NCBI GenBank assembly: GCA_044450345.1
Contig: JBIOIY010000019.1
Coordinates: forward strand, 1 to 44,190
From: Thermodesulfovibrionales bacterium
Lineage (GTDB): Bacteria > Nitrospirota > Thermodesulfovibrionia > Thermodesulfovibrionales > UBA6898
DNA: 44,190 nt
Direction of reading: 5' to 3'
Shown here: one piece after another, positions 14,992 through 44,190 of the stretch
How positions within the stretch are numbered: position 1 is the first letter of the stretch
Layout of the letters: every line of letters starts with the position of its first letter
Made by a program: the position numbers and the translations under genes
Notes under the pieces: model-generated
The model's input: only the letters and a program-made list of their open reading frames with translations
Databases searched by the model: none
What the model was told of the DNA's origin: nothing

Positions 14992-15000
14992 GGACCTCCT

Positions 15001-28040: not shown

Positions 28041-28043
28041 TTT

Positions 28044-29615
28044 TCACCTTTCACTTTTCACGTTTTTTGGCTCAGGCGGATTATAAGACGCGGGAGCAAG
28101 CAAGTTGCCCCAGTCGGTACGTTTTTCCATTTCCTCTTTTACAGTAAGCGGCACCAACTCCTTCCCCTCCCTTGTCTCCCAGCCCCCGCCGAGCGCCCTG
28201 TAAACTCCCACGAGACCATGTGAAATGTCTCCCAGGGTTACAGCGAGGCTGTCTTGTTCACTAAGGAGGCTCTGCTGGGCGATCAGCACCGCTGTGAAAT
28301 CCTTGATGCCTTCCCGATATTGCTTCACCGCAAGGTCGAGAGAACTTTTAGCTGACTGCGCACTTTGGGCCAGAAAAAAGGCCCGTTCCTGGGCCCTAAG
28401 GAAAGCAGCCAGATTGTCCTCAACCTCCTGTTGTGCCTTCAACACAGTGTTCTGATAGGTAATGAGCAGTTCCTGTAATTTCGCATCCTGAAAACGAACG
28501 TTGTTTGTGATCTGGCCATAATTGAAGATATTCCACTGGAAAGACGGGCCGATCTGGTAGGTGCGGCTTTTCCACCGAAAGATATCGCTAAGCTCCGATC
28601 CTGCGGCATTGCTTGACTGAAAGCCAAATGTTCCGTTCAACGACAAGGCGGGATAAAGGGCGGCTTTGGCCACGCCGATCTGGGCAGATTGGGCGGCTGC
28701 CTGGTATTCCGCGCTACGGATATCCGGACGACGGCGAAGCAGATCTGCGGGTATACCCGCAGCTATATCGGATGGCGAAACAGGAATTTCTGACTCACCT
28801 TTAAGAATATCCTCCAAATTGTTCGGCGCCATGCCCAGCAATACGCAAAGCGCGTCTTTTTGCTGCTTCAGCTGGGCGTCAAGGGAAGGAATGGAAGCCA
28901 TGGTATTGTTGAGTTCTGTCTTGGCCTGCTCCACGTCAAGTTGTGAGGCGATGCCGTTACGGAACCTTGCTTCAGCGATCTTGAGACTCTCTTTTTGGGT
29001 TTCAACATTTTGACGGGCAATGCCTATGCGTTTTTCGAGAGTTCGAATATTAATATATGAATTGGCAACGTCCGCAGTAAGACTCACAAGCGCGTTATCG
29101 TAATCAGCTGCAGTTGCAAGCCAGGCGGCATTGGCCGACTCAATCGCCCTCCTGAACTTCCCCCAGAAGTCGAGTTCCCAACTGGCACTCACCCCAATCT
29201 GGGCCTCATTATATTCAACCGGCCCTAAGGCGAGAGCCGACGATCTGCTCGTCCTGTGATGATCAAGAGAACCGCCGGCCTGCTGGGTCTGGGGGAAAAA
29301 TCTGCCTGCGGCAATCCCCAGTTGGGCCCTCGCTTCGAGTAATCTCACGCCGGCAATCCTGAGGGAGAGGTTTTCGTCGTAAGCCCGGTCAATTATTCTG
29401 TTTAAGACCGGGTCATTGAATGTCTGCCACCAATTGCGATAGCCCGCTGTCTCGCTCTTGACCCTCTCATCTCCAGACTCGGTCCAGGCCGACGAAACCG
29501 CAACGGCGGGACGTCGAAAATCGGGACCGACCATGCAGCCGGATACTAGTACGCTTAAGACCGCCGCAATACCATAAAGGACAGAAAACGGTTTGTCCAT
29601 AGAGCGAAGGAGCAT
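28044..29615 (-). CDS. NodT/OprM family outer-membrane efflux lipoprotein
   Basis: SGCMVGPDF, WELDFWGKFRR, LLRRRPDIR, YRALGGGW. Confidence 0.95.
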   Translation of the reverse strand: MLLRSMDKPFSVLYGIAAVLSVLVSGCMVGPDFRRPAVAVSSAWTESGDERVKSETAGYRNWWQTFNDPVLNRIIDRAYDENLSLRIAGVRLLEARAQLGIAAGRFFPQTQQAGGSLDHHRTSRSSALALGPVEYNEAQIGVSASWELDFWGKFRRAIESANAAWLATAADYDNALVSLTADVANSYINIRTLEKRIGIARQNVETQKESLKIAEARFRNGIASQLDVEQAKTELNNTMASIPSLDAQLKQQKDALCVLLGMAPNNLEDILKGESEIPVSPSDIAAGIPADLLRRRPDIRSAEYQAAAQSAQIGVAKAALYPALSLNGTFGFQSSNAAGSELSDIFRWKSRTYQIGPSFQWNIFNYGQITNNVRFQDAKLQELLITYQNTVLKAQQEVEDNLAAFLRAQERAFFLAQSAQSAKSSLDLAVKQYREGIKDFTAVLIAQQSLLSEQDSLAVTLGDISHGLVGVYRALGGGWETREGKELVPLTVKEEMEKRTDWGNLLAPASYNPPEPKNVKSER

Positions 29616-29748
29616 AGACCTCAGCCTCCCCAGTTGCGCCTAAAATTCAGAAATTCATTAGGTCAAAGGAACCTATCAAAATGATATCATGCCCCCAAAA
29701 AGAGTCAAGGGCGCATTACCTCTGTGTGCATTTCTGGCAGTAGCAAGG

Positions 29749-29776
29749 TTGACATTATTCATGTGCCTGCTACTAT
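29749..29776 (+). promoter_or_regulatory. Sigma70 promoter for the VOC-ycaC-SnoaL genes
   Basis: TTGACA-16-TACTAT with TGn; RBS TAAGGAGG downstream. Confidence 0.6.
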
Positions 29777-29807
29777 TTGAAGAAGGAAAACCTTAAGGAG
29801 GTACAAC

Positions 29808-30170
29808 ATGGCAAACCCCTTTGTTCACATTGAATTGCATACGAAAGACGTTGAGAAGTCAAAAAAGTTTTACACGGGTATGTTCGACTGGAAGCTAGAG
29901 GAATTTCCCGGCATGGACTACACGATAATCAAAGTCGGAGATGGAACGGGCGGAGGAATGATGAAGAACCCCATGCCTGGCGATCCCGACAACTGGCTTC
30001 CGTATATCATGGTTGATGACGTAGAAGCATCAACGAAGAAAGCGACGTCGCTCGGAGCCGTCATTGCCAAGGATATCACAGAGGTTCCGGACATGGGGTG
30101 GTTCAGCGTGATTATCGATCCGACTGGTGCGGCTTTTGGACTCTGGCAGTCGAAGACAGTCAAGATGTGA
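29808..30170 (+). CDS. VOC/glyoxalase family protein
   Basis: FVHIEL, FY..MFDW, WLPYIMVDDV, DPTGAAFGLW. Confidence 0.9.
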   Translation: MANPFVHIELHTKDVEKSKKFYTGMFDWKLEEFPGMDYTIIKVGDGTGGGMMKNPMPGDPDNWLPYIMVDDVEASTKKATSLGAVIAKDITEVPDMGWFSVIIDPTGAAFGLWQSKTVKM

Positions 30171-30226
30171 TTTTCTGCGGCTGACACGCTCTTTCCCAGT
30201 CACCGTACAAATATAAGGAGAATGCC

Positions 30227-30850
30227 ATGACCAATCAAAACCGTCCTTACGAACCCCTGACGTCGCAAAACGCGGCGCTCGTCCTCGTCGATCATCAGGT
30301 CGGCCTCATGACAGGCGTCCGCGACTATTCGACCGGAGAGCTGAAACACAACGTAGTAGCGCTGGCCAGAGCCGCAAAAGCGCTGAAATTGCCGATTGTC
30401 GTCACCACGACAGCGAGAGACAGCATGTGGGGCCCGACGTTCCCCGAACTCGTCGAAGCGCTGCCGGGCATCGAGATCATCGACCGTTCGTCGGTCAACG
30501 CTTTCGACGACGCGCGCGTAGCGCGTGCCATCGAGGCGACCGGCCGCAAGAAGCTGATCTTCGCCGGCATCTCTCTCGAAGTCTGCGCGGCTTTCCCGGC
30601 CATCACAGCCGTGGGCAAAGGGCTCGACGCTTATGTGGCGGTCGATGCCTCGGGAACGTTCAGCGAGACCAAGCGCCAAGTCGGGCTCCTCCGCATGTTG
30701 CAGGCGGGCGTCATCGTCTCTGACTACGCAACCCTGATGGTGGAAATACTCAAGGACAATGCGCGGCCGGAAGCCGGCGAGGTCTACGGGGCTATGGACA
30801 TGCCCTGGGCGAAGCTTGTCGGCCAGATCTCCCGCGCCTACGGAAAGTAA
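30227..30850 (+). CDS. Isochorismatase-family hydrolase (YcaC-like)
   Basis: LVDHQVGL, NAFDD, GISLEVCAAFPA, DASGT. Confidence 0.9.
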   Translation: MTNQNRPYEPLTSQNAALVLVDHQVGLMTGVRDYSTGELKHNVVALARAAKALKLPIVVTTTARDSMWGPTFPELVEALPGIEIIDRSSVNAFDDARVARAIEATGRKKLIFAGISLEVCAAFPAITAVGKGLDAYVAVDASGTFSETKRQVGLLRMLQAGVIVSDYATLMVEILKDNARPEAGEVYGAMDMPWAKLVGQISRAYGK

Positions 30851-30925
30851 ACGACTGGCGGAAAGCCGACGTGCTCAACGCCGGCATCCTCGGATTCATG
30901 GTAAGTAGCTAGACAGGGAGGTCTC

Positions 30926-31771
30926 ATGGACATGAAGTCAGCTGAAGAAAGCAAAGCATTAGTTCAGAAGGCATTCGATACGCTCTTTAACAAGCGTGAT
31001 TACGCGAAAGCGGCGGAGTTCTGGTCAGAGACTTATATTCAACACAGTGCCCACATAGAGCCTGGGCGAGACGGTTTGTTCAACCTCATCCGCAGCCTCC
31101 CGGACACGCTGCGTTATGAGAACGCTCGCATCCTGGCAGAGGACGACTATGTGATGCTGCACGGGCGGTTTAGTGGACACGGCCGCCCCCGAGCATGGAT
31201 TGCTGCCGACATTGTGAGGCTAGAAGGGGGACGCCTGGCGGAACATTGGGATGTACTGCAGGACGAAGCCACCAAGGACGAATCAAAAAGCGGTCTGCCG
31301 ATGTTTGGCACTTCATTCGCTGAACCCGGTTATCAACCCGCACCCGGTGCCGCACCATTGACGATAGAGGAAGCGCGAACGATCGTGGCGCCGCTGTATG
31401 AGGCGTTGAACGAACCCGCCAAGAAGGATGTGGCTTCCTTGTTGGCCAAGGCGACTAATCCTGATTACCGATCATATTCGACAAATGAGGACTGCCTTAC
31501 GCGCGACCAACTAGTCGAAGTATTTAAGATGCTAGGCTCGGCCGTCCCGGATTTGCGCTGGACAATTGAGGATATCCAGACGTTCGGCGATCAAATCGTG
31601 GTGCGTGGTAAAGCGACCGGGACACCCAAAGGGGAGTTGTGGGGAGCGAAACCGACGGGCAAGAGATTTAACACAATGGCGATTGATATATTCACCGTGA
31701 AAAACGGCAAGCTGGCTTCCGCTTATCACGTTGAGAACTGGATGGGAGCATTGGAGCAGATTGGCAAGTAG
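30926..31771 (+). CDS. Tandem SnoaL/NTF2-like domain protein
   Basis: YIQHSAHIEPGRDG...LAEHWDVLQ, then VPDLRWTIED...YHVENW. Confidence 0.85.
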   Translation: MDMKSAEESKALVQKAFDTLFNKRDYAKAAEFWSETYIQHSAHIEPGRDGLFNLIRSLPDTLRYENARILAEDDYVMLHGRFSGHGRPRAWIAADIVRLEGGRLAEHWDVLQDEATKDESKSGLPMFGTSFAEPGYQPAPGAAPLTIEEARTIVAPLYEALNEPAKKDVASLLAKATNPDYRSYSTNEDCLTRDQLVEVFKMLGSAVPDLRWTIEDIQTFGDQIVVRGKATGTPKGELWGAKPTGKRFNTMAIDIFTVKNGKLASAYHVENWMGALEQIGK

Positions 31772-31829
31772 GGGCAACTGCGGGTGAATATGCAGCGATC
31801 TCAATAACTGTTATTATATGAGGACCTCC

Positions 31830-32975
31830 TCAAAAATGTTCTCTCCGACCCCGCCCTTTACTCTCGACCCCTCGAAAACTTGCACCCAGCGGCTCCCAGG
31901 CGCTTACCTGCCAGTTATCCAGTTTTCCTTCATCTGCAACCCATGGCGGCAGTTTAATGAGAAAGAAGGCTGCCAGCCCGTTGGCGTATGGTTCGTACAT
32001 TGCCCGCAATTTGGCCAATGGCTCGTCAGCGGCTTCTCCCTCATTAAACTTCAGGCCTGCATCCGCTAAAATTGTGTGCAATCGTGCAAGCATGTCCGGA
32101 GACAGCCGATCATGCGATGGCTTTACGGGTGGTCTGTTAAATACAAGAGAAAGGTCGACGACAGCGTGGCGGGCAATAGCAAATGTCAGTTCAGCCTGCC
32201 TCTTGCAACTTCCCTCCACACCTACCATTACCAGCGCGCAGGTGTCGAGGACCGCAGTAAGGGCACCGAGCCACGACTGATTATCGTGCTGAGATCTGAA
32301 ATAGGCCAGCACCGGGTAAGAGATATGGCCTTCGAGAAGTTCAGCAGACCAAGTCTCCCACTCCAGGAGCAGTTGCCTGAGGGCCTCCATGCCATGCGCG
32401 TCAGCGTGGCGGCGCAGAATTTCTGCGGCACAAGGAGGGGAACCCGCCCTGGCATCAAGGAGTGAGATGCTCACTTCCCGCCGGGCAAAGGACTGGTTTA
32501 GGGCTGGAATGTAACTGATAACAAGGGCCAGAAACCCAAACCCCAGCCCCGCTTCAAGCACCGTAAGAAAGCGCGCCACTCCACTGCTGGGAAACACATC
32601 TCCCAACCCAAGGGTGAAAAAAGTTGTGCCACTCATGTACAGGTCAGTAAGAAAGCCCCCGTCCCCCACGGTCGCACGGACCTGTGAGCCGATAGCCCAG
32701 TGTAGCGATGCAAAACCGATGATCAGGCAGATGACCCAAAAACCTATCATAAGAAGATTGCAAAGGGGGCCGAAGAAACTCAAACAAGTTTCACGAAATT
32801 TCTCCGGAACGAGGCTGGTGACCGTCCCCCGCCAGGAACGCCAGAAGAACCGGAAAAGGTATCTGCTGAGGCGGAACCGGCGGGTCACCCGGCGTGGAAG
32901 TACAATGGTCTCGAATCCTTCCCATAGGATGACCATAACCAGAAACACCCCAACTATCGCCGCCACTACTTGCAT
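31830..32975 (-). CDS. Potassium-channel-family (ion_trans_2) membrane protein
   Basis: TM helices flanking pore loop YMSGTTFFTLGLGD; HISYPVLAYFRS cytoplasmic motif. Confidence 0.8.
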   Translation of the reverse strand: MQVVAAIVGVFLVMVILWEGFETIVLPRRVTRRFRLSRYLFRFFWRSWRGTVTSLVPEKFRETCLSFFGPLCNLLMIGFWVICLIIGFASLHWAIGSQVRATVGDGGFLTDLYMSGTTFFTLGLGDVFPSSGVARFLTVLEAGLGFGFLALVISYIPALNQSFARREVSISLLDARAGSPPCAAEILRRHADAHGMEALRQLLLEWETWSAELLEGHISYPVLAYFRSQHDNQSWLGALTAVLDTCALVMVGVEGSCKRQAELTFAIARHAVVDLSLVFNRPPVKPSHDRLSPDMLARLHTILADAGLKFNEGEAADEPLAKLRAMYEPYANGLAAFFLIKLPPWVADEGKLDNWQVSAWEPLGASFRGVESKGRGRREHF

Positions 32976-33458
32976 CGCATAATTGTACCACACCACAAGT
33001 TAAAATAAGGACGCACTCGCTATGTAGGGGATACTGAGAACTGACTTAAGAGCAACCATGTGGTTGTCCTACTTTATCCCGACAAGACTGAAATAGTCGC
33101 AAAGAGAAGTTTGTATGGCCTGCTGAATCCCTTATTTTTTTATGAACACGCGAATCATTTCGGAATGAAGCTGTTAACGTTGACTAGAATGGTCTCTCTG
33201 CAGACTATAGGGAGTACAGGTTAACCAGATCGACTCATAAAATCTGTTCGTTATTTCCCGTACTTTGCAAACGAGAATAATTATTTTTGTTTGTACTGTG
33301 CACACAGTTGCGGCAATCTGAACCTGTTGGCTCCTGTGAGAAACAGCTTTTGAGACAGTAAAAAAGGAGGGACAAAAAAAGTTTCCCGGAAGTAAACGCA
33401 ATTTGGCCTCTTGTTTTGTCCTGTGCATTTTATATTGCCCTCCTCAAATCATGAATAT

Positions 33459-33474
33459 AGCACGAGCTGTGCCA
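33459..33474 (-). promoter_or_regulatory. Sigma54 (-24/-12) promoter candidate
   Basis: TGGCACAGCTCGTGCT (GG-N10-GC), followed by RBS GAGGAGG and ATG at 33428. Confidence 0.5.
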
Positions 33475-33622
33475 AGTGGAAAGCCATTATGAAGAAAAGT
33501 TATTCGATAGTTTCATGTATAGCCAAGTCATTGAAATAGAACTCGCAGTAACAAACTTGAAACTCTGAATAGCAAAAATCTGACGAAAAACTGGTTTAGT
33601 CTGACACAAATCTGACGAAAGG

Positions 33623-35140
33623 CTATTCCTTGATGACATAGTGAGTTGACCTCCCGGAGCCTCTCTGCTCAATAAGCGCTAACTCCATAAGCCTCTTGAA
33701 ATCCCGATTTGCCGTGTCTCTGGTTATTCCGAATTCCCTTGTGCATTCTTCGCTGGATATCCTTGAATGATCGAGAATATATTTGAGAATGTCTTTTTGT
33801 CTTGTCGTGAGCTGATTCAGCCTATCCGAAGGAATTTCAAAGACAACATTCAGCTTGCTCGGCTTGAGCTTAAGGATATCCTCAGGCCCGTAGAATGTGA
33901 CCGTGAAATAACCGGATTCATAATCGATTGAAGGGGGCTTGAGGCCGTAATTCACCATCATGTCGTGCATCCTCTTAAATCCGCCGCCGCGCTCTTCCAT
34001 AAACTTCGAGTCAAAAAGAGCGCTGGCTATAATCTAATTTCTGGATTTGGGCCGATATTTAAAAGCTCTTACCATTTCAAGGGTCAACGGTTCCGGCAAA
34101 AGGCCGGGGCTTGCTATAACTATCCTATCAGAGAAAATCTGGACCATTATAGCCGCACCTGATATGACGTAATCCCTATGTGCAAGGGCATTTATTACTG
34201 CTTCTCTTAGTGCCTCGATGGGGTATTCGGAAATCTGGACTCTTGAAAACCCCTCAATACGTGCGGCGGTCTTCATGTTTTTGAGAAAGAATGCCTCGGC
34301 GCCCTTGACCAGATCAAAAATGGCGCCCATAATCTCTTTCTGATCGATAGTGTTTCCGGGCTCAGTACCTTGAAATGCATCCGCTTTAATCTTGCTTTGA
34401 GGGAGATATGATTGAGGATGTTTACCAAACAGAAGCAACCCGGCCACGGTCGGGACCAATAGATTTCTATGCGGCAAGAAATGGAGCATGCTCCTCTTTC
34501 TGAGGAGGTCTATTATCTCAGCCTTGCCCTTAAGCTTAAGCCCTGCCGCCTTGAAAAACGCGTCGGCATCTTTCAGCGAGATTTCATTCTCCGGCGCGTT
34601 CATTATTGGTTTCTTGTCGTAATTAGAGGAAGTCTTATCAGGCTCTACGGTGCTTTTTCCTGTCGGGATCTCAATGTCATGCTTCTTCTTGAGATAATGA
34701 CTCAGGCCTTTACGAGTCCAATCTTTCAGCTCTATGTAATTTTCAAATCTCTTGTAGCTGTATCCCCGATGCCCCTTGAATTCTTTCAACAGGTCTTTCA
34801 ACTTCTCGTCTCTTCCAGTGTCTGTCTTGCCTTTGAGGAACACAAGGATATATTTGTCATCGGCCTTTGCCTGTCTATATTCCCTTTCAGTCGGTGACAG
34901 ACCGTCCTCTTCGGGTGTCCCGTATTCGTTTCCGAATATGCCTATGTAAAGATCGCACTCCTTCAGTTTTTCCAGGTATGCTTTTCTTGAAGGCACTGCC
35001 ATAGGAGGAAACCCTTCCCACATCTCGACATCGAAATAACGGTTCAAAAACTCATTATCCGTAATCGCCTCCTTAACAGCGAGGCGTTCATTCATGAGTT
35101 CCTTTAAGGTTGAGCTTATGAATATCTTAATCTTCTTCAT
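33623..35140 (-). pseudogene. DUF4062 + RecG_C/HATPase_c_4 + wHTH protein interrupted by one in-frame TAG
   Basis: KIFISST..EL..ER, YIGIFG.EYG, SPTEREY; REAVINALAHRDY, SPG; KSRN*IIASALFDSKFMEERGGG continues in frame (TAG 34034-34036). Confidence 0.85.
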
Positions 35141-35306
35141 TTACTTTCGATAGAATGTAACAGTTTTAAATCTAAGTTTTCAAATAGGATATAGTCTCAG
35201 TGTGCCTGGCGGAGCTTTACCTAAGCATAGCAGAAGGCTTTAAGGATAATGTACAAGCTAGAAGGACGGCAGCTCATGCCTTCTCCAGAGTTTTCCGATT
35301 TCCACT

Positions 35307-35326
35307 GTAGCAGAATCGTAGCAGAT
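35307..35326 (+). repeat. GTAGCAGA direct repeat, possible integrase arm-type sites
   Basis: GTAGCAGA-ATC-GTAGCAGA about 120 bp inside the tRNA fragment. Confidence 0.45.
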
Positions 35327-35447
35327 TTCTGCTCTTAAGGCAGAAAATACGGAAAAACCGGAAATTATAGAATCAGAGTTTCTTAAACAAAATCATTGAG
35401 TTAAGCCCAAATCGTTGCCAGTAGCCCATCTGTTAATAATGCCCGCT

Positions 35448-35496
35448 TCGCCCTTTCAAGGCGGTAACGCGGGTTCGAATCCCGCTGGGGACGCCA
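35448..35496 (+). mobile_element. tRNA-Glu(TTC) 3' fragment; probable attR of an integrative element lying to the left
   Basis: Anticodon arm TCGCC-CTTTCAA-GGCGG, T arm GCGGG-TTCGAAT-CCCGC, acceptor 3' strand TGGGGAC-G-CCA; no D arm or 5' GTCCCCA upstream. Confidence 0.85.
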
Positions 35497-35766
35497 ACGT
35501 TACTCTCAGCAAAAAAAAACTTGCTGAGTTCATGTTTGATGGACCTATGGGAACTATATTCCTGTAGGTCCATCTTGATACCGCCCGTCTTTTCACCGTC
35601 ACACCAGCTTTGTTTGCATCTTCAATGTCAACTATTTTTTTAAGTAAGATTTAAAGATTACCGATCTCCCGTTCAAGGCGTTCATACGGGAGATTGTCCA
35701 TACGACGCACGTTACAATCGTAAGAGAGTATGGTTTATGTGAGCTTCTCTGTATGCACTCTTCAGA

Positions 35767-37215
35767 CTATCCGCAAGCCCTGCCTTTTAAACTGAAGAAG
35801 AATTTCAGAGTCTTTTTAACCTTCTCTGAAAATATTTTCCCGGAAAAAAAAGACCCGACAACCTTCTTGTTTATCTCTCCGAGTGTTGGATAGGGATGAA
35901 CGCTGCCCGCCAGGGTCGAAAGATTGACATTGCCATTCATTACCGCCACCCATTCGCTTATCAGTTCTCCCGCATGGGGACCGAGGATTTGAACACCTAT
36001 GGGTTTTTCCTTTTCGTCAAGGAGCATTTTGATCCTTCCCACCTCTTCCCCCTCCGCAAGACTGCGGTCGTTTGCCCTGAACTCCTCCGTCCAGGCCGAA
36101 TATTCTATCCCCGCAGCTTTCGCCATTGCTTCATTCATGCCGATGTTCGCAAGTTCCGGATCAGTATAGGTGCACCAGGGCAGATTGCTAAAATCAGCTT
36201 TTCTGGGCAGGTGGAAGATGGCGTTGCTGACGACAATGCTTCCCTCATATCCTGCGGCATGGGTAAAGAGGTATTTGCCATTGACGTCGCCGATCGCATA
36301 AATGTGTTTATGATTAGTCATCATGCGGTCATTGACCTTAATGCCTCTCTTATCGAAATCCACGCCAATTTCTTTCAGCCCCAAACCTTCCACATTGGCG
36401 TCCCTTCCTATAGCGACAAGAATGGTTTCGGCGCGGAGGGCAACCGAAGTGCCTTCGGCGGTCTTGATGACGACCTCCCGTTCGCTGCCCAAATCCTGTG
36501 TGCTTTCAATAGAGGCTTTCAGATAGAAGGTCACGCCCTCTTTGCTTAACACATTCATCACCAGATCCGCCATATCCCTGTCTTCTTTATGAAGGATCTG
36601 ATCAGGACGCTGGATGACCGTAACCTTTGTCCCAAGACGGGCAAAGGCCTGCGCCATCTCCGTGCCGATGGGGCCTCCGCCTAAAATGATCATGGATTTC
36701 GGAAGTTTTTCCATAGAGAAGATCTGCCTGTTGGTGACATAAGGGGTCTTGTTCAACCCCTTTATCGGCGGAACTGAAGGGGAAGAGCCCGTTGCGATGA
36801 CCCAGTTCTTTGCCGAATAGGTTTTTCCATTCAGACGAATGGAATGTTCATCGGTGAAGGTCGATTCCCCGAATTCAACTTTAGCGCCGAGTTTGCAAAA
36901 GCGCTCCTCGGAATCATGCTTTTGGATAATGCCTATGACATGCTGAATTCTCTTTGTCACGTCTCTGAAGTCCACAGGCGGAAGCTCCACCTCCGGAAGA
37001 CCGAAATATCCCGCTTTTTTCATCATATGCCGGACATGGGAGGTCATTATGAGTGTCTTGCTCGGAACACATCCATAATGGAGACAATCACCGCCCAGTT
37101 TGCTTTCCCTATCGATAAGGAGCGTTTTTGCCCCGAGTTGGGCCGCTCCGGCAGCAACAGTGAGCCCCCCCGAGCCGCCTCCGAGTATCCCTATGTCAAA
37201 GTCAAAATTTGCCAT
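35767..37215 (-). CDS. Class I pyridine nucleotide-disulfide oxidoreductase (LpdA/MerA-like)
   Basis: GGGSGG, GGDCLHYGCVPSK, GGGPIG.E, HPYPTLGE; no C-terminal CC pair. Confidence 0.9.
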   Translation of the reverse strand: MANFDFDIGILGGGSGGLTVAAGAAQLGAKTLLIDRESKLGGDCLHYGCVPSKTLIMTSHVRHMMKKAGYFGLPEVELPPVDFRDVTKRIQHVIGIIQKHDSEERFCKLGAKVEFGESTFTDEHSIRLNGKTYSAKNWVIATGSSPSVPPIKGLNKTPYVTNRQIFSMEKLPKSMIILGGGPIGTEMAQAFARLGTKVTVIQRPDQILHKEDRDMADLVMNVLSKEGVTFYLKASIESTQDLGSEREVVIKTAEGTSVALRAETILVAIGRDANVEGLGLKEIGVDFDKRGIKVNDRMMTNHKHIYAIGDVNGKYLFTHAAGYEGSIVVSNAIFHLPRKADFSNLPWCTYTDPELANIGMNEAMAKAAGIEYSAWTEEFRANDRSLAEGEEVGRIKMLLDEKEKPIGVQILGPHAGELISEWVAVMNGNVNLSTLAGSVHPYPTLGEINKKVVGSFFSGKIFSEKVKKTLKFFFSLKGRACG

Positions 37216-37239
37216 GTTACCTCCTTTATTGCCGGGCTT

Positions 37240-37962
37240 TTACTTATTATCGGAGCTTGCCTTCTTTGATTTATATAGAGACAGCAATTTCTTTGTCGCA
37301 ATGGGGAACAGTCCGAGAAGTACGAAAGATAATATCAGGCCGGGAGAAAGTATCCCTGAAATGGAATTGATCTTTGCCAGTTCCTTGCCGGCATTCACAT
37401 ATACTATCGTTCCGGCCAACATTCCCACCTGAGAGACCCAGTAGAAGGTTCTAAGCGGCATCTTCGTGAGCCCCATAATCAGGTTGATTAGCCAAAAAGG
37501 AAAGATAGGGATCAATCGCAGGGTAAATAAGTAAAAACTCCCCTCTCTTGCTATCCCCTCGTTGACCACTTTGAGCTTGTCTCCGAACTTCCCTTGTACC
37601 CAGTCTCGTAAGACAAAACGAGATACGAGGCACGCTAAAGTTGCACCGATCGTACTCGCAAAGGAAACAACAATTGTGCCTATCAATAATCCAAACAGGG
37701 CCCCCCCTGTAAGGGTCATTATCGCGGCTCCCGGCAACGATAACGATGTCACGAGGATATAGATCAGCATGTATGCGGCAATTACCATTGGCCTGTGATC
37801 TGCGTAGAGGACGGCCAATTTTGCCTGAGATGCCTTGACGTAAGAGAGGGTAAAATACTGCTCAAGACCAAGAACCTTAAAGATCACTACTATTCCGACC
37901 ACAGCGGTTATGACCGCTATCTTTTTGGTGATTTTCTTATGCATCACGCTCCTTGCCGACAA
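37240..37962 (-). CDS. TVP38/TMEM64 (VTT/DedA superfamily) membrane protein
   Basis: LSLPGAAIMTL.GG.LFG, ASTIGAT, LRLIPIFPFWLIN, VSQVGML.GT.VYVNAG. Confidence 0.92.
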   Translation of the reverse strand: MSARSVMHKKITKKIAVITAVVGIVVIFKVLGLEQYFTLSYVKASQAKLAVLYADHRPMVIAAYMLIYILVTSLSLPGAAIMTLTGGALFGLLIGTIVVSFASTIGATLACLVSRFVLRDWVQGKFGDKLKVVNEGIAREGSFYLFTLRLIPIFPFWLINLIMGLTKMPLRTFYWVSQVGMLAGTIVYVNAGKELAKINSISGILSPGLILSFVLLGLFPIATKKLLSLYKSKKASSDNK

Positions 37963-38002
37963 GAACGGTATCTTTCAATTCTCCTCCTTGATCATGAAGC
38001 CG

Positions 38003-40003
38003 CTACATTTTAATAAACAGGGGCTGTTTGCAGTAAGGGCATGTCTCCATCCCCTGGAACTTCTTCAGATATCGCTGCACCGTAATAATAAAGGTCGCAT
38101 GACTCCATGTGAGAGGAGAAACCGAAACAGGTTCACCGGTAAAGGGGTTTACCTGTTCTGCAAGCACCCCCGACCGAAGAGCTATTTGCGCGACCCAGTT
38201 CAGTATCGGAAGGCATTCCTTTAACTCCTCCTTGTTTTGTGCCTTCTCTATCAGATACTGGGCATGCCAGAGCGTGCAAATGACCCAGGGATTGCCGGGG
38301 ATATCCTCGTTCGGTTCAACTACGCTTTGGTACCGATCGTTCTCGTATCTTGCCATGCCGCCTATTCCGGTCTTGCACCATAGCTTATCTTTCAGGGCGT
38401 TCATACTACGCTGAATCTTGTCATCATCTGCGGGAAAGACACCGAAAGCGAAGAGGCCGAAGAGACTTGCATCGAGTCTGAAATCATTCTTGAGTATCCC
38501 AAAACGTTCAGAAACCGAGCCCAGAAATCTCCCGACCTCATCGCTATAGAGATATTCCGTCAGCGCGTCCCTTATCCTATCAGCCGCTTTTTCGTATTTT
38601 TCGGACAGTTCTGTCTCGCCGAAGGCCACAGTGAAATGGCCCGCGGCCCTCAGCCCCGCGATGACGGCGGAGACGGTAAAAGCATGAATCCCCAACTGCT
38701 CTTCCCATAGGTCGTATGACGGAAGGGGGAGACCGGTCCTCTGGTCTACGAACTCACACATGAAGTCCGCTGCGGCCTTGATGACCTTTCTGTACAGGGG
38801 CTTTATGAACTCAACGTCCCGGTACATACTGTAATGCTCCCAGAGAGCCCAAACAACGAGCCCGGTTTCATCTTCCTGGATCGGCAGGTGGGGTTTTCCC
38901 TCAAGAACCCAGGGATGCCATGAACTGGCGAGAGATCCATCGGCGTTATACTTGTGCAGGAAGAACCCGTTTCTCCCTATTATCTCCCCGCAGAATTCGA
39001 AGAACCCTCGCGCAGGGATCGGATAGCCGGCAAGGTCGAGGGCATACGCGACGAGGGCACCGTCCCTTGGCCACATATACGTATAGGTGTCTCTCGAAAA
39101 GTGGAGGATGTCCGAATCGTTTGCGGCTATGACCGAGCCATTGTTGTTTATGTGGGTCCTGAGGATGAGGAGGCTTCGGGTATATAGTCTTCTGACGGCA
39201 TCCGGGAGATCACCGAATTTCATATTCTCCCTGCCGAGCCACAACCGCCAATAATCGGCTGTCCTCTTGATGAAATACCCCGGTGTCCTCTTCACAACGA
39301 GATCATTCAGCCTTTTCACACCTTTCCAGTCAATGCACGCGGCCATCCAGTAATATGCGTGCGCCTTCTTGCCGGGAGGGATCGTTGTATGCACGGCGCA
39401 GATCGAATCCACGGATCCCTGCGCAACCGGGTTACCCGACAGTACCCCGTCCTCCGCGTCGACCCACGAACCTTCCAGCCCTTTTGTCTCCTTTACCCCT
39501 GTGGCGAACTGAGCAAGACCGATGCCTTCTTCAGTCAGGGCGTTTACCAGAAAATACCTCCGTCCCTTGTAGTGGAGGAGAGCCTTCTCCTCCGGCTTGT
39601 AACATACTGTATCGCCGATCTCTGATCCATATATATGAAAATCATTGTGGAAAAAGAGCCGGAGCTCTATGAACTCCGGCGTGAGATTCCTTGCCGTGAT
39701 CTCCCTAACGTAGAGGTTTTCGTGAAAGTCGACCACATCCCGCATGAGAATTTCTATTCCAAGGGTTTTGTTGACAAGTTCGATTCTTGCTACGAGGGTA
39801 TCATCTTCATAATCCAGCGAGCGCTCCCACCCATCTCCGTCAATCCAGCTAAAAACCCCGTTTATCCAGGCGCCGACTCTGAAGACGTGACCCTGGGCGT
39901 GGTTCTCGCTGCCCACACTCGGGAAATAGAGGTCCCGCAGAAGCCCTTTTTGATCGTACAGTATCAGCAGGGAGCCGTTCCCTATAGGTATATCTCTTGG
40001 CAT
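38003..40003 (-). CDS. Glycoside hydrolase family 15 (glucoamylase-like)
   Basis: MPRDIPIGNG, YMWPRDG, QEDETG, DLWEE, LAEQ, PLTWSHA; C-terminal CPYC. Confidence 0.9.
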   Translation of the reverse strand: MPRDIPIGNGSLLILYDQKGLLRDLYFPSVGSENHAQGHVFRVGAWINGVFSWIDGDGWERSLDYEDDTLVARIELVNKTLGIEILMRDVVDFHENLYVREITARNLTPEFIELRLFFHNDFHIYGSEIGDTVCYKPEEKALLHYKGRRYFLVNALTEEGIGLAQFATGVKETKGLEGSWVDAEDGVLSGNPVAQGSVDSICAVHTTIPPGKKAHAYYWMAACIDWKGVKRLNDLVVKRTPGYFIKRTADYWRLWLGRENMKFGDLPDAVRRLYTRSLLILRTHINNNGSVIAANDSDILHFSRDTYTYMWPRDGALVAYALDLAGYPIPARGFFEFCGEIIGRNGFFLHKYNADGSLASSWHPWVLEGKPHLPIQEDETGLVVWALWEHYSMYRDVEFIKPLYRKVIKAAADFMCEFVDQRTGLPLPSYDLWEEQLGIHAFTVSAVIAGLRAAGHFTVAFGETELSEKYEKAADRIRDALTEYLYSDEVGRFLGSVSERFGILKNDFRLDASLFGLFAFGVFPADDDKIQRSMNALKDKLWCKTGIGGMARYENDRYQSVVEPNEDIPGNPWVICTLWHAQYLIEKAQNKEELKECLPILNWVAQIALRSGVLAEQVNPFTGEPVSVSPLTWSHATFIITVQRYLKKFQGMETCPYCKQPLFIKM

Positions 40004-40015
40004 GCCTACCCCTCG

Positions 40016-40624
40016 TTAATGGCCTGCCTCACTACCCCACAGCTCCTTGAGCCGCTGATCGCGACCACAGTTGAAACGGTAGAATTTGTAACGGATCGGA
40101 TTTTTCTTGTAATAGTGCTGGTGGTAATCCTCGGCTGGGTAGAACTCTGTTGCCTGTACAATCTCGGTAACGATAGGCTCCTTGAAGGTCTTGTTCTTTT
40201 CCAACAGCGCCTTCGACTGCAGCGCCAACCGGCGTTGTTCCTCATTATGATAGAAGATTGCGCTTCGATACTGATGCCCGGTATCGCAGAATTGCCGGTC
40301 CTTGGCGGTCGGATCAATATTGTGCCAGAAGACGTTCAGGAGCTTATCGTAAGTTACTTTTGCCGGGTCATAGACAACCTGAACCGACTCTGCGTGCCCT
40401 GTCCCTCCGGCCGAGACCTCTTCGTAGGTGGGATTCTTTTTCTGCCCTCCAGTGTAACCGGATGTGACGGAAACCACGCCGGGAATCTCGTCGAATGGGT
40501 GTTCCATACACCAGAAGCAGCCGCCTGCGAAGGTCGCTTTCTCGAGATTAGTTGCAGCCATGACTGTGGTGCTTGCGATAAGTATGGCCGATAGTACCGT
40601 TATCGCGATAATAAGCATTTTCAT
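40016..40624 (-). CDS. msrA: Peptide-methionine (S)-S-oxide reductase, exported
   Basis: FAGGCFWC, GHAE, QYRSAIF, AEDYHQ; signal peptide MKMLIIAITVLSAIL; RBS GGAGG. Confidence 0.95.
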   Translation of the reverse strand: MKMLIIAITVLSAILIASTTVMAATNLEKATFAGGCFWCMEHPFDEIPGVVSVTSGYTGGQKKNPTYEEVSAGGTGHAESVQVVYDPAKVTYDKLLNVFWHNIDPTAKDRQFCDTGHQYRSAIFYHNEEQRRLALQSKALLEKNKTFKEPIVTEIVQATEFYPAEDYHQHYYKKNPIRYKFYRFNCGRDQRLKELWGSEAGH

Positions 40625-40646
40625 TGCATCTCCTCCCCATACCGGC

Positions 40647-41189
40647 CTATTTTTTGGTTGCCACAAATTGCAGGGCAGCTGAATTCATACAGTAGCGCAG
40701 CCCGGTCGGTTTCGGGCCGTCGTTAAAGACGTGGCCGAGATGGCCGCTACAGCGGCGGCAGAGCACTTCTGTGCGGTGAGTGAAAAAGCTGTCATCCGGT
40801 CTGGTAATTATGTTCTCAGGAGCGATCGGAGCTGTAAAGCTGGGCCAGCCGGTACCAGACTCATACTTATCTTCAGACCTGTACAAATCGAGTCCGCAGG
40901 CTGCACAGCGGTAAATTCCATGCTCGTGATTGTCGGCATATTTTCCGGTATAGGCACGTTCAGTCCCCTTCTCCCGTAGTATGTTGTATTGTTCAGCTGT
41001 CAGTTGTTTTTTCCACTCCTCATTGCTCTTAACAACAGTTTCACTCATGACATAGTCCCCTTTTTCCGCGGAATACACCTTGATCGGGACTGGCGCTGAT
41101 ATGTCGCCGGTTCCAACCGACTTTCCTGAGCTGCAAGAAAAGATCATGCTGCCAACGATTAGCCCGCTCAGCAAGGGTAAGTATTTCAT
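40647..41189 (-). CDS. msrB: Peptide-methionine (R)-S-oxide reductase, lipoprotein
   Basis: GTERA, CAAC/CRRC Zn motifs, SGTGWPSF, HLGHVFNDGP, RYCMNS; lipobox IFSC. Confidence 0.95.
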   Translation of the reverse strand: MKYLPLLSGLIVGSMIFSCSSGKSVGTGDISAPVPIKVYSAEKGDYVMSETVVKSNEEWKKQLTAEQYNILREKGTERAYTGKYADNHEHGIYRCAACGLDLYRSEDKYESGTGWPSFTAPIAPENIITRPDDSFFTHRTEVLCRRCSGHLGHVFNDGPKPTGLRYCMNSAALQFVATKK

Positions 41190-41224
41190 TTGATTGCTCC
41201 TTTCAGTCGCCTATAATCACTGGT

Positions 41225-41707
41225 CTATTTTTTAAGTACGTTGGGCCATTTCTCATCCGCTTTTTTGATATATCCCGGAATGTCCTTACTCCACTTGTCC
41301 TTTATTCTTTTGCTGAGGTTGATATACAGCCTTCCATCAACAATGTTCCAAGCATCAGGATCAATATCGGCAGTGGTCCCCTGGCTGACCGCATATGCGC
41401 AATAACCGCCGTACTTCGGCGCATATTTGTCAGGGTCTTTAATAAACAGGTCTTTGTGTCCGGCGGTCGAGAAGCGCCACTTTGCACCCATCCATACATA
41501 TTCGAAGTCCCTGCTCCCTCTCACAGGTTTTCTATCTGTAAAATATGCAACAGGGTCATAGCCTTTAATCGCTACGCCATCAGAAGTTTTGTTTACAGGA
41601 TCGATAGCGAATGCAGGACTTAAAGTTAATAAATAGAGCACTGCAATGATAAGAATTGCCACAACGGTATTCTTTTCGCTTCTCCTTGAGATTCGAGCTG
41701 ACATCAT
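41225..41707 (-). CDS. Exported YHS-domain (seleno)protein family member, Cys form
   Basis: AIKGYDPVAYF, WRF, PKYGGYCAYAV, W.IVDGRLY; signal peptide. Confidence 0.88.
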   Translation of the reverse strand: MMSARISRRSEKNTVVAILIIAVLYLLTLSPAFAIDPVNKTSDGVAIKGYDPVAYFTDRKPVRGSRDFEYVWMGAKWRFSTAGHKDLFIKDPDKYAPKYGGYCAYAVSQGTTADIDPDAWNIVDGRLYINLSKRIKDKWSKDIPGYIKKADEKWPNVLKK

Positions 41708-41846
41708 TTTGCCCTCCGTTTACTGATTATGAAGACATCGTTCACTCCTAAGAGAAGTATATCAACCGCATAAGATATAGCAAGTCAATGGAGAACATCG
41801 ATATGTGAGAATTTAGCCATGTATTGAGAACCTGAACGTTTTTTGA

Positions 41847-42152
41847 CTATTTAATAGTTCCCAGGTAAGTACCGGCCTTCTTTAAGGCCACTTCCATTTC
41901 TTCGATTGTAACTACTGCGGGATCATAATAAACTGTGTTTATCTCTTTAAAGTAGCGAAAGCCTTTTTCAACTCTCTTCACTCCCTTCAGCCCTTCCAGG
42001 GCTTCCTTGCCGACATCATATCATTTAACATAGAAGATCGCCTGGGATATTCCAGCATCTTGTGCGAGAGAAAGCCCATAACCTGAAAAGATAAACAGCA
42101 TCAATACAAAAAGAGTCAAAGGCTGAGTGATTCGGTTCTTCATATATTTCAT
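41847..42152 (-). CDS. Candidate exported selenoprotein with minimal MsrA/HMA-like fold (Sec at TGA 42021-42023)
   Basis: MKYMKNRITQPLTLFVLMLFIFSGYGLSLAQDAGISQAIFYVK-U-YDVGKEALEGLKGVKRVEKGFRYFKEINTVYYDPAVVTIEEMEVALKKAGTYLGTIK*; RBS GAGGA; hairpin after the TGA. Confidence 0.75.
41989..42003 (-). promoter_or_regulatory. Putative bacterial SECIS hairpin
   Basis: mRNA AGCCCU-GGA-AGGGCU starting 17 nt after the UGA, G in the apical loop. Confidence 0.55.
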
Positions 42153-42535
42153 CAATAGCCCATCCTCAAAGATCCTTGCGTAATTGGGGTTACACTTTCC
42201 ATGCTCATTGTATCACGAGAAAGGAAACCGACCTAATTAGGGCGGGCAAACCGAAGGGGGGGAGTAGTTGTCAATTTGAGAAGAGGCTGCCGGCGCGGAC
42301 TTTAGAGAATACTTTTCGCCAGCTAAGTCTCATTTTTTTGCGCCTTTGGAGGCAAATCAAATAAAGTACCCTAATTGCTATAGTGCGAAAAACTCATGAA
42401 TATGAGTGGATAATATATGGCAATTATGCTATTTTCTCGTAATAAACAATAACTTGGCTTGGGATTATTTATCTGTGTTGGGATCATTAAGAACACGAAA
42501 TGATGTCTTAAAGAGTTTTGCTGAGAGTCACGCCC

Positions 42536-42578
42536 GGGACGCCAACAAATTCAAGGGTCGCGAAAGCGGCCCTTTTTT
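42536..42578 (+). terminator. tRNA-like 3' end (GGGACGCCA) plus intrinsic terminator
   Basis: GGGACGCCAAC identical to 35488-35498; AAGGGTCGC-GAAA-GCGGCCCTT followed by a T run, with no plus-strand gene upstream. Confidence 0.65.
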
Positions 42579-42779
42579 GTTTTAGGGCGGCCCGGCATCG
42601 CCTATGCCTGGTGGGTTATACTATCGTGATGATTAAAACCGCAATCATTGACATAGACAATAAGCCTGCGATGATGACAGGGAAGTACGAGAGAATATCG
42701 AAGCAGTCCGGACCGGGCATCGGACTTGAAGTTGCTGGCTTACAATGAAAAAACAATCATATATGAGAGGAGAGAAATT

Positions 42780-43367
42780 ATGAGTAAAATTAAAATCGAG
42801 AAAGGCATGTTCTGTCTTCCCGGGACTCAGACACTTCTTGGTACTCATCTGAATGGAAAAGTGAACTTCATGGCTCTGGATTGGTTGACAAGGGTCAACT
42901 ATGACCCCGTAATGTTTGGCATCTGCGTCAACAAAAGGAATGCATCGAATTCAGCCATTAAGACTAGCGGTGAATTCAGTATTAATGTCCCTAGTATGGA
43001 TATGGTTGATGTTACCGATTATTGCGGCATTGTATCGGGATGCAAGATAGACAAGTCTGATATATTTGAGGTTTTCTATGGTGAGTTGAAGGCTGCCCCA
43101 CTTATCGAGATTTGTCCAATCAATATCGAATGCAAAGTAATTGAAACTGTTGAACTGCCGACGAATACTTTGTTTATTGGAGAAGTGCTTAACATTTATA
43201 GCAAAGAAGATTTTCTCACAGACGGCAAGCCGGATGTAAAGAAAGTCAATCCATTTCTTCTCACTATGCCAGACAATAGATTCTGGTCGGTTGGCGACAA
43301 CGTTGGTAAAGCATGGAAGGATGGAGCTAAGTACAGAGAGCGGCTAGAACAAAAGAAACCAGAATAG
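42780..43367 (+). CDS. Flavin reductase / flavoredoxin family protein
   Basis: GKVNFM, GEFSINVP, DYCGIVSG...DKS, APLIEICPINIECK, LFIGEV; RBS GAGGAG. Confidence 0.9.
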   Translation: MSKIKIEKGMFCLPGTQTLLGTHLNGKVNFMALDWLTRVNYDPVMFGICVNKRNASNSAIKTSGEFSINVPSMDMVDVTDYCGIVSGCKIDKSDIFEVFYGELKAAPLIEICPINIECKVIETVELPTNTLFIGEVLNIYSKEDFLTDGKPDVKKVNPFLLTMPDNRFWSVGDNVGKAWKDGAKYRERLEQKKPE

Positions 43368-43400
43368 ACTGGGGACTGTTATCCGCTGAAGGAGAAGGGT

Positions 43401-43721
43401 ATGATTTGTCCGTTTTGCAAAGAGGAAATTAAGGACGGTGCCTTAAAATGTAAACATTGCGGGTCGATGCTTGCAGATGCGTCACAGACAACCGGGGCAG
43501 TCTCGAAGTCTGGGAAGAATAAAATCGCAGCCGGTTTATTTGCAATACTCCTCGGTGGTCTTGGAGTCCACAAATTCTATCTGGGGAGAACAGGATGGGG
43601 AATCATCTACTTAATTTTCTGTTGGACATTCATACCTGCCCTTGCAGGTATTATAGAGGGCATACTTTATCTCACTGCTTCCGATGAGGAGTTCGAAAGA
43701 AAATATACATGGAGAAAGTAG
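43401..43721 (+). CDS. Zinc-ribbon + TM2 domain membrane protein
   Basis: CPFC...CKHCG; KNKIAAGLFAILLGGLGVHKFYLG. Confidence 0.9.
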   Translation: MICPFCKEEIKDGALKCKHCGSMLADASQTTGAVSKSGKNKIAAGLFAILLGGLGVHKFYLGRTGWGIIYLIFCWTFIPALAGIIEGILYLTASDEEFERKYTWRK

Positions 43722-43800
43722 AACTGAAACAGCCATCCGGGGCATTCTGAAAAAAATCGGGGCGGAATATGGGGAGCAGTGGGGAATTTGACAAATGGCT

Positions 43801-43827
43801 GCGAGTCACCCTCCGAGGGTGACCCGC
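43801..43827. terminator. Hairpin between convergent genes
   Basis: GCGAGTCACCCT-CCG-AGGGTGACCCGC. Confidence 0.55.
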
Positions 43828-43837
43828 CTTCTGAAGT

Positions 43838-44190
43838 TCATCTGTCGTCGTCAGGTTCCGAAGACGGCGGCACTGCAGGCACCTTCTCCCATCCGCCGGC
43901 GCATCTCCGCACATACGGATAGTAAGCGTTGGACTTTTTGCAGTAGTACCAGGTGTCCCCTGCTGACGACCTCGTCCGAGCCGGCTCCGAATATGCCCGT
44001 TCGTCGGCGTACGCCGGTTCCCGCTCACGGACAATCATCCTCGTCGAAGGACCATATGCCGGAGCGTATGCATAGGGGTCATACGGATAGTATGGATAGT
44101 ACGGCTGGTAGTAATACGGATAGCTCAGAAGCGCCCCCGTGGCGACCCCGAAACCGAAACCGGGCCAGCCCCAACCCCAGCCCCAACCAC
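43838..44190 (-). CDS. 3' part of a Pro/Tyr-rich exported protein (truncated by window)
   Basis: WGWGWGWPGFGFG...YPYYYQPYYPYYPY...WYYCKKSNAYYPYVRRCAGGWEKVP. Confidence 0.75.
   Translation of the reverse strand, partial: GWGWGWGWPGFGFGVATGALLSYPYYYQPYYPYYPYDPYAYAPAYGPSTRMIVREREPAYADERAYSEPARTRSSAGDTWYYCKKSNAYYPYVRRCAGGWEKVPAVPPSSEPDDDR

Follow-up and report, generated by a model that had tools for sequence, protein, structure and literature searches.

Exported methionine sulfoxide reductases (Msr) are usually fed with electrons by thioredoxin-fold proteins and CcdA or DsbD, as in PilB/MsrAB of Neisseria and Etrx-CcdA-MsrAB2 of Streptococcus. The question raised by a 44,190-nt contig of a Thermodesulfovibrionales bacterium (JBIOIY010000019.1, assembly GCA_044450345.1; the whole contig is referred to here as the window) is how such enzymes are served when none of these partners is encoded beside them. 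Seven closely packed genes on the minus strand of the window (35767-42155) encode a small protein with one in-frame TGA, designated SelP102, a YHS domain-containing protein, a lipoprotein MsrB, an exported MsrA, a GH15 hydrolase, a TVP38/DedA membrane protein and a flavoprotein disulfide reductase (PNDR), with concordant names from open reading frame (ORF) calls and Pfam/NCBIfam matches. A preliminary description of this DNA, made from its letters alone, had reported seven co-oriented genes of these types and no DsbD/CcdA or thioredoxin. Both observations hold, since all seven genes were found where it had placed them, and none of the 37 window ORFs scanned encodes a thioredoxin-fold or DsbD_TM protein. 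It had gone on to propose that the reductase, the DedA protein and YHS/SelP102 form an alternative relay to periplasmic MsrA/B.

A different answer is favored here, by a modest balance of probability, in which the stretch is one stress-type operon joining two modules that are each conserved independently. Module A (SelP102, YHS, MsrB and MsrA) would repair oxidized methionine in envelope proteins, the chemistry being performed by a GCFWC-type MsrA and a one-Cys MsrB, while SelP102 and the YHS protein, with one reactive selenocysteine (Sec) or Cys each, may serve periplasmic sulfoxide reductases generally as accessory proteins. The reducing power for MsrA/B would most likely pass from cytoplasmic thioredoxin through CcdA to exported TlpA-like proteins, all of which are encoded elsewhere in the genome. 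Module B (GH15, TVP38/DedA and the reductase) would be a separate membrane-associated redox unit, which elsewhere lies beside compatible-solute hydrolases, glucose/NADPH-producing enzymes and ArsS-type radical-SAM/glycosyltransferase genes. The link between the two modules is best read as shared stress regulation, an electron conduit being less likely.

This reading is carried by a comparison of about 160 related loci. SelP102 was followed in 63 loci from public genomes, where the 443 surrounding ORFs were clustered and tblastn was run with the window proteins, and by their record titles these loci come from Nitrospirota, Desulfobacterota lineages, Planctomycetota, Leptospirales and Sphingobacteriales (at least four phyla). 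MsrA/B lies within 2 kb of SelP102 in 28 of the 63 loci (on the same strand in 25), a molybdenum (Mo) enzyme of the sulfite-oxidase fold (PF00174) is directly upstream in 18, and 43 have either an Msr within 3.5 kb or the Mo enzyme. Response-regulator/kinase genes are near SelP102 in 36/63 loci, YHS in 9/63 and DedA with the reductase in 8/63, and the extra neighbors in loci without Msr are heterogeneous. Within the order, SelP102 occurs in 5 of 151 genomes, and in G001, G007 and G042 it is far from, or on another contig than, the DedA-reductase orthologs. When DedA is used as the anchor instead (40 loci were fetched from 401 phylum genomes, proteins with 56% identity or more being counted as orthologs), a reductase ortholog adjoins it in 29/40 loci, Msr or SelP102 is adjacent in 3/40, all close relatives, and a window-type GH15 is present in 3/40. 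Of 20 loci with more distant DedA proteins, 14 have a reductase no more than 5 kb away, and DedA homologs are found in 240 of the 401 genomes, many of them without SelP102. The company of exported Msr with SelP102 and YHS, which the preliminary description had pointed out, is widespread, and so is that of DedA with PNDR; the seven-gene set as a whole separates into two modules, and a specific tie between the DedA-reductase pair and Msr is not supported, with adjacency in only those three loci. Judged from gene context, DedA and the reductase are a genuine functional pair.

The conventional electron route is available in this organism. Its genome encodes CcdA (contig C40; 57.3 bits against a cut-off of 27.1, with both Cys motifs), four exported TlpA-like thioredoxin-fold proteins, one of them with UxxC, and a cytoplasmic thioredoxin, and CcdA is present in all five relatives that carry the cluster or its variants. 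Recycling by a CcdA/thioredoxin system encoded elsewhere had been named in advance as a finding that would speak against the proposed relay; CcdA and the four TlpA-like proteins are indeed there, and that they recycle these particular Msr enzymes is what we infer. In common with the Neisseria and Streptococcus systems are extracytoplasmic MsrA and MsrB and a genome with CcdA and exported TlpA-like proteins, whereas no thioredoxin domain is fused or adjacent to Msr in the window, where a Sec protein and YHS are encoded instead. A second point of reference is MsrPQ of E. coli with its HprSR regulator, which also repairs methionine sulfoxide in the periplasm (PMC6316033, PMC9302797). SelP102 relatives resemble it in adjoining the PF00174 Mo enzyme in the 18 loci above, in having a cytochrome b561 gene with a second copy of the Mo enzyme in 4/63 loci, and in the two-component regulators that are often upstream. 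Unlike MsrPQ, however, the window has MsrA/B and no Mo enzyme, and in the relatives the scores of the Mo enzymes fall far short of the cut-offs for MsrP and SorA. As separate observations, in-frame TGA codons were seen in an exported TlpA-like protein (WUPYC; G000:C66:6141-6509) and in a peroxiredoxin (FVUATE; G000:C59:13532-13948).

Table 1. Seven-gene stretch of the window and the hairpin inside its first gene (scores in bits; "vs" gives the model cut-off)
Feature	Positions	Strand	Basis and remarks
Small candidate selenoprotein SelP102, 101-102 aa	41847..42155	-	ATG at 42152; one in-frame TGA
SECIS-like hairpin (A)GCCC-UGGAA-GGGC(U)	41989..42003	-	Begins 20 nt past the SelP102 UGA
YHS domain-containing (seleno)protein, Cys form GGYC, predicted exported	41225..41707	-	NF041384 168.5 vs 70
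MsrB, predicted lipoprotein	40647..41189	-	TIGR00357 191.6 vs 113.05; PF01641 170
MsrA, GCFWC type, predicted secreted	40016..40666	-	TIGR00401 215.2 vs 108.1; PF01625 229
GH15 hydrolase, glucoamylase/trehalase-like, C-terminal CPYC, predicted cytoplasmic	38003..40003	-	PF00723 98.1 vs 22
TVP38/DedA membrane protein, COG0398-type VTT domain	37240..37962	-	PF09335 84
Class-I FAD/NAD(P)H disulfide reductase, predicted cytoplasmic	35767..37215	-	PF07992, PF02852, PF00070

From YHS through the reductase the genes (Table 1) are separated by gaps of 12-40 nt, and a consensus pattern scan found no excess of promoter-like sites (7 against 7.8 expected) or terminator-like sites (8 against 6.8), which is compatible with a single transcription unit. 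A look-up of public sequencing runs listed none with RNA. The signal peptides of SelP102, YHS and MsrA and the lipobox of MsrB were judged by eye, as was the lack of a signal peptide in GH15 and the reductase. MsrA likely starts at the ATG at 40624, after which the signal peptide follows (again by eye). The MsrB sequence combines two zinc motifs of the CxxC type with the catalytic RYCMNS, lacks a resolving Cys (SGTGWPSF) and shows a lipobox-like ...MIFSC, and fused MsrAB relatives keep the same invariant set of Cys residues. The same genome has a second exported and fused MsrAB of 367 aa on another contig (G000:C29; L002 8986-10089), and about 4 kb from it (L002 3643-5001) there is a 452-aa disulfide flavoreductase with 32% identity to that of the window, accompanied by a DsrE-like gene.

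The first gene of Module A is one that conventional annotation would truncate or misread. The SelP102 ORF is open only with readthrough of the TGA at codon 45 (bases 42021-42023), the protein has no Cys residue, and its N-terminal segment resembles a signal peptide. A word-indexed search gave 157 homologs, in which the TGA site is given as W in the majority of database records, as is typical of gene callers that translate TGA as Trp, and as C in three (P0047, P0057 and P0115). When the codon was read directly in the 63 loci (61 copies scored, 6 hits unscorable), it was TGA in 58/61 copies, TGT in two (L083 and L094) and CGA in one. The site is embedded in the motif V-x-U-[YF]-D-V-G with coding conserved on both sides, and the genome has both tRNA-Sec (C4:78884-78981) and SelB (382.4 bits against a cut-off of 242). 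Searching 1.84 billion representatives with the profile returned 223 matches at E ≤ 0.001, and among the 150 listed there was no informative fusion, 149 being 170 aa or shorter and the remaining one a weakly matching repeat protein of 575 aa. Many of the database matches start right after the Sec codon, as expected from truncated gene calls.

An Rfam search of the window at the gathering threshold gave no match. The selenocysteine insertion sequence (SECIS)-like hairpin downstream of the UGA has a stem of 5-6 bp and a G-rich loop, its five core pairs are all standard in 42/56 distinct sequences, two of the pairs each have one U-A variant, and the loop reads UGGAA, UGGAG or UGGCA in 50/56. Because the stem overlaps the conserved ALEG codons and its folding energy equals that of shuffled sequences (z 0.0), the hairpin is taken as no more than partial support. 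SelP102 exceeds the cut-off of none of the NCBIfam selenoprotein models (the best being NF041383, 29.5 against 275 bits, and NF041115, 27.8 against 95), and it is unmatched in the 119-family table in the main text of a 2026 review (PMC13188914), the supplements of which, like those of PMC9312934, may list it under another name. On the evidence of these sequences, SelP102 is a genuine Sec family in which Cys forms exist and Sec would be inserted at the TGA, and it is a candidate selenoprotein family absent from the curated models and from that main table. If confirmed, it adds a family that present gene callers truncate or read as Trp, one that would be linked with the repair of envelope methionines in Nitrospirota, in Desulfobacterota and in a few further phyla, and it becomes a concrete candidate for servicing one-Cys MsrB and exported MsrA in anaerobes.

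NF041384, a known selenoprotein family (Zhang and Gladyshev, 2007, PMC1976440; also tabulated in PMC13188914), includes the YHS protein as a full member. This family exceeds the cut-off in 16 of 151 genomes of the order, and in 8 of 19 matches a TGA sits exactly at the Cys of GGYC, so that these relatives carry Sec (GGYU) where the window copy has Cys. The neighborhood of the family is one of oxidative stress, as judged from 17 loci, which contain superoxide dismutases of the Cu/Zn, Ni and Fe types, cytochrome c peroxidase, OsmC, rubrerythrin, the Mo enzyme and a Sec-type MsrA, and in none of these 17 loci is DedA, the reductase or GH15 beside YHS. A 7-bladed beta-propeller "lactonase-like" protein was seen directly upstream of SelP102 in four loci (L052, L064, L071 and L086) and near YHS in another (L034).

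What the selenol of SelP102 would do is addressed here with a tentative proposal, somewhat short of even in our estimate, that it is a redox partner of the reductases or an oxidant trap for them. Such a partner is chemically plausible, as selenium compounds are able to recycle one-Cys MsrB (PMC6316033). Metal handling is the next likeliest role. The SelP102 model (pLDDT 81) has a ferredoxin-like beta-alpha-beta-beta-alpha-beta fold with Sec45 between strand 1 and helix 1, and a Foldseek search with it places MerP first, with ATP7B domains and CopZ also on top and MsrA structures at ranks 12 and 41. A profile search of PDB sequences likewise gives MerP (E 0.049), whereas hhalign of SelP102 against the N-terminal half of the window MsrA (72% probability) pairs Sec with the catalytic Cys and also matches up the V-x-YDP motif. 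The type-2 VPGUxxT model NF041383 weakly matches both SelP102 and MsrA, and a search with it of the 151 genomes of the order gave no matches, its controls being likewise silent. In the ESM Atlas the closest cluster is from Nitrospirota, and a further, weak lead is an HMA cluster (0.82). The likenesses to MerP and to MsrA are both weak, and the protein is filed under neither family. A predicted complex of the Cys-form protein of L094 with its neighboring fused MsrAB scored 0.00, which gave no verdict and is unused as evidence.

On these grounds SelP102 and YHS might be periplasmic binders or chaperones of soft metals (Cu, Hg, Ag), with Msr acting on metal-oxidized envelope methionines and no electrons passing to Msr, a reading that we consider rather unlikely. 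Beyond the structural matches, it draws on the weak match to NF041115, which is a UxxU metal-binding (seleno)protein model, on the label "copper chaperone CopZ" that some sources give to homologs, on the regulators upstream in many loci and on the alignment of Sec with the second Cys of the MerP CxxC (counted from the alignment of the PDB profile search). In addition, MsrP of E. coli has been tied to copper stress and CusF (PMC9302797). SelP102 does share with MerP/HMA domains the fold, a reactive residue at the start of helix 1 and a periplasmic location, which is predicted here, but where these have CxxC it offers a single Sec, with no other ligand residue. It matches no Pfam family at E 0.01, HMA (PF00403) included, and the resemblance is one of fold alone. 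Moreover, its neighbors are sulfoxide reductases and not metal pumps, with only one P-type ATPase among 33 extra ORFs, the YHS relatives adjoin superoxide dismutases and peroxidases of different metals, and the hhalign result puts Sec on the MsrA catalytic residue.

Module B stands on its own set of neighbors. Among 22 DedA-PNDR pairs whose flanks were examined, trehalase-like GH15+DUF547 fusions occur in 5 loci, MGH1-like hydrolases in 2, glucokinase in 3, PGI in 3, G6PD/6PGD in 2 and ArsS radical-SAM proteins (TIGR04167, above cut-off) in 5, and TIGR04282/TIGR04283 transferases, DUF3047 and a fatty-acid hydroxylase are found repeatedly. As hydrolases and sugar/NADPH genes recur beside these pairs, GH15 is not a stray insert; that it had entered by chance was considered and rejected in favor of membership in the DedA-reductase module. 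Its substrate models score low (TIGR01577, 325 bits against a cut-off of 820.7, with trehalase models lower still). Its C-terminus reads ...CPYCKQPLFIKM, and the CPxC tail is kept in 6 of 7 distinct orthologs, the other having TGA in place of the first Cys codon, past which the coding stays conserved. That case (L140, G374:C45, also L111) reads UPHC and is a possible GH15 selenoprotein outside the main-text table of PMC13188914.

The reductase contains the CxxxxC center GGDCLHYGC and a conserved C-terminal extension that ends in KGRACG. It matches no equivalog above cut-off (best NF004991, 464 against 620 bits), and it falls below those for MerA, dihydrolipoyl dehydrogenase and glutathione reductase (TIGR02053, 348.6/454; TIGR01350, 385.8/408.8; NF004776, 264.7/480). 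The tail Cys is present in 34/34 distinct ortholog strings, 32 of them as GRAC, and DedA has a single conserved Cys (Cys111) in 43/46 close homologs. In the distant clade this position is Phe in 22/22 DedA proteins, and 0/14 of the reductases adjoining DedA have the tail Cys. Fusions of VTT and PNDR domains account for 7 of 20 long proteins listed, and 4 of the 7 also contain DUF547. DedA-reductase fusions are mentioned, with no function assigned to them in the sections concerned, by Todor et al. (2023, PMC10127716), where known DedA proteins are described as flippases or scramblases of lipids or undecaprenyl phosphate. The window has the same COG0398 DedA/PNDR pair as two genes, to which its clade adds the reductase tail Cys, the DedA Cys, a CPxC-tailed GH15 and adjacency to Msr. 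DUF547 proteins adjoin DedA-reductase pairs in Nitrospirota loci, and DUF547, alone or fused to GH15 or MGH1-like domains, was seen to have a conserved VCAS-x-SCP (CxxxxC) in L143, L144, L148, L150, L173, L165 and L169. In view of a link between DedA and selenite, it was also considered whether the pair takes up or reduces selenium, and this was set aside because the pair is widespread in lineages of unexamined Sec use. The DedA-reductase pairs and fusions of Nitrospirota would have their place among GH15/DUF547 hydrolases, sugar enzymes that produce NADPH and genes of the ArsS type, and through one clade that gained Cys or Sec in DedA, the reductase and GH15, the function of COG0398 DedA proteins becomes open to testing.

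Several points weigh against a stress operon of two modules that are joined by regulation alone. No thioredoxin-fold or CcdA gene is a recurrent neighbor cluster across the 63 SelP102 loci. Modules A and B stand side by side in 8 of those loci and in several gene orders, including DedA-PNDR-Mo enzyme-SelP102 in two from Desulfobacterota (with gaps of 25-35 nt in L065), and SelP102 directly precedes Module B hydrolases of two families, GH15 (L058, L060 and L086) and MGH1-like (L065). One locus from another family of the phylum has the order regulator-MsrAB-DedA-ArsS. This repeated juxtaposition exceeds what chance would easily give and could mean direct coupling, and thiol chemistry is hinted at by three clade-specific features, Cys111 of DedA, the tail Cys of the reductase and CPxC of GH15 (UPHC once). 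The nearest solved relatives of SelP102 bind metal, so its redox role is less than established, and YHS domains are usually regarded as metal-binding. Finally, co-transcription, export and Sec insertion are all deduced from the sequences. Given the adjacency in at least three lineages and the clade-specific Cys residues, a redox link of some kind between the modules is unlikely in our estimate, with few independent events behind it.

The specific form of such a link that was proposed in the preliminary description, a relay independent of CcdA/DsbD in which electrons of the flavoprotein, or a small reduced thiol, cross by way of TVP38/DedA and SelP102 and/or YHS recycle MsrA/B, is distinctly unlikely. 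Its concrete path would run from NAD(P)H to FAD, the CxxxxC center, the tail Cys (GRAC), DedA Cys111 and the Sec of SelP102. The tightness of the operon, the eight loci of varied order, two of them from Desulfobacterota with the Mo enzyme, the one MsrAB-DedA locus and the lack of a thioredoxin or CcdA gene beside any SelP102-Msr cluster are all in keeping with it. So is the joint occurrence of the tail Cys and Cys111, which are both missing from the distant clade (0/14 tails, 0/22 DedA), but this pattern depends on one phylogenetic split, and a single Cys in DedA is unlike the pair in CcdA/DsbD. A low-molecular-weight thiol could be made, as EgtD and an enzyme like MES, an ergothioneine synthase that depends on metallopterin, are encoded about 17 kb away. 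Against this, neither Msr nor SelP102 adjoins DedA in 37 of its 40 ortholog loci, DedA orthologs occur in many genomes that lack SelP102, the modules lie apart in G001, G007 and G042, and CcdA and TlpA-like proteins are present, while the DedA proteins of known activity move lipids or undecaprenyl phosphate (PMC10127716). What endures of the relay is the DedA-reductase pair itself, which is genuine, and its recurrent juxtaposition with SelP102; its dedication to Msr does not, the pair being unspecific for these enzymes and the conventional CcdA/TlpA-like proteins being encoded.

A wider version, which we regard as very unlikely, would make DedA and the flavoprotein a transmembrane reducing system of anaerobes, in which the tail Cys passes electrons to the DedA Cys and on to a single-Sec protein, serving both MsrA/B and Mo-type sulfoxide reductases, with NADPH derived from stored sugar through the redox-tailed GH15. 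That the adjacency of the modules has no functional meaning, the region being accessory DNA assembled by gene transfer and rearrangement, is highly improbable. In its favor, the 16-kb region is missing in full from the DNA of the same-genus genome G121, which also has no YHS, DedA-ortholog or SelP102 matches, a 3' tRNA-Glu fragment is found 270 nt past the reductase gene, the close relatives L046 and L048 have a lost or truncated GH15, and two related loci are flanked by transposases. Against it, juxtaposed modules occur in at least three lineages, where partner enzymes and gene orders differ, and the intergenic gaps are short (12-40 nt).

The tRNA fragment deserves a description of its own. 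At 35448-35498 on the plus strand, 51 nt are 100% identical to the 3' part of the tRNA-Glu(UUC) of G121, no full tRNA is found in the window, and the stretch, about 270 nt past the reductase gene, looks like an integration scar. The DNA missing from G121 corresponds to window positions 28000-44190, save for one reductase paralog.

Elsewhere in the window there is an apparent anaerobic ergothioneine cluster (13993-18384, minus strand, and 18561-20815, plus strand). It includes the histidine methyltransferase EgtD (TIGR03438, 366.8 bits against 290.9) and, beside it, a 1127-aa fusion of a molybdopterin-binding module with a NifS-like cysteine desulfurase, an arrangement known from the metallopterin-dependent ergothioneine synthase (PMC9516567). 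Divergent from this cluster are genes for an ABC ATPase and for an OpuAC-permease fusion. Together they resemble the ergothioneine transporter EgtUV. A 558-aa protein (21687-23363, plus strand) joins a cyclic-nucleotide-binding domain to a thioredoxin-reductase-like flavoprotein (TIGR01292, 226.6 bits, below the cut-off of 343). At 33623-35140 on the minus strand, a RecG-C-like HATPase_c_4 domain is divided over two successive ORFs, its first half being joined to DUF4062 and its second to a DeoR-like HTH, and the pair looks like one gene split in two.

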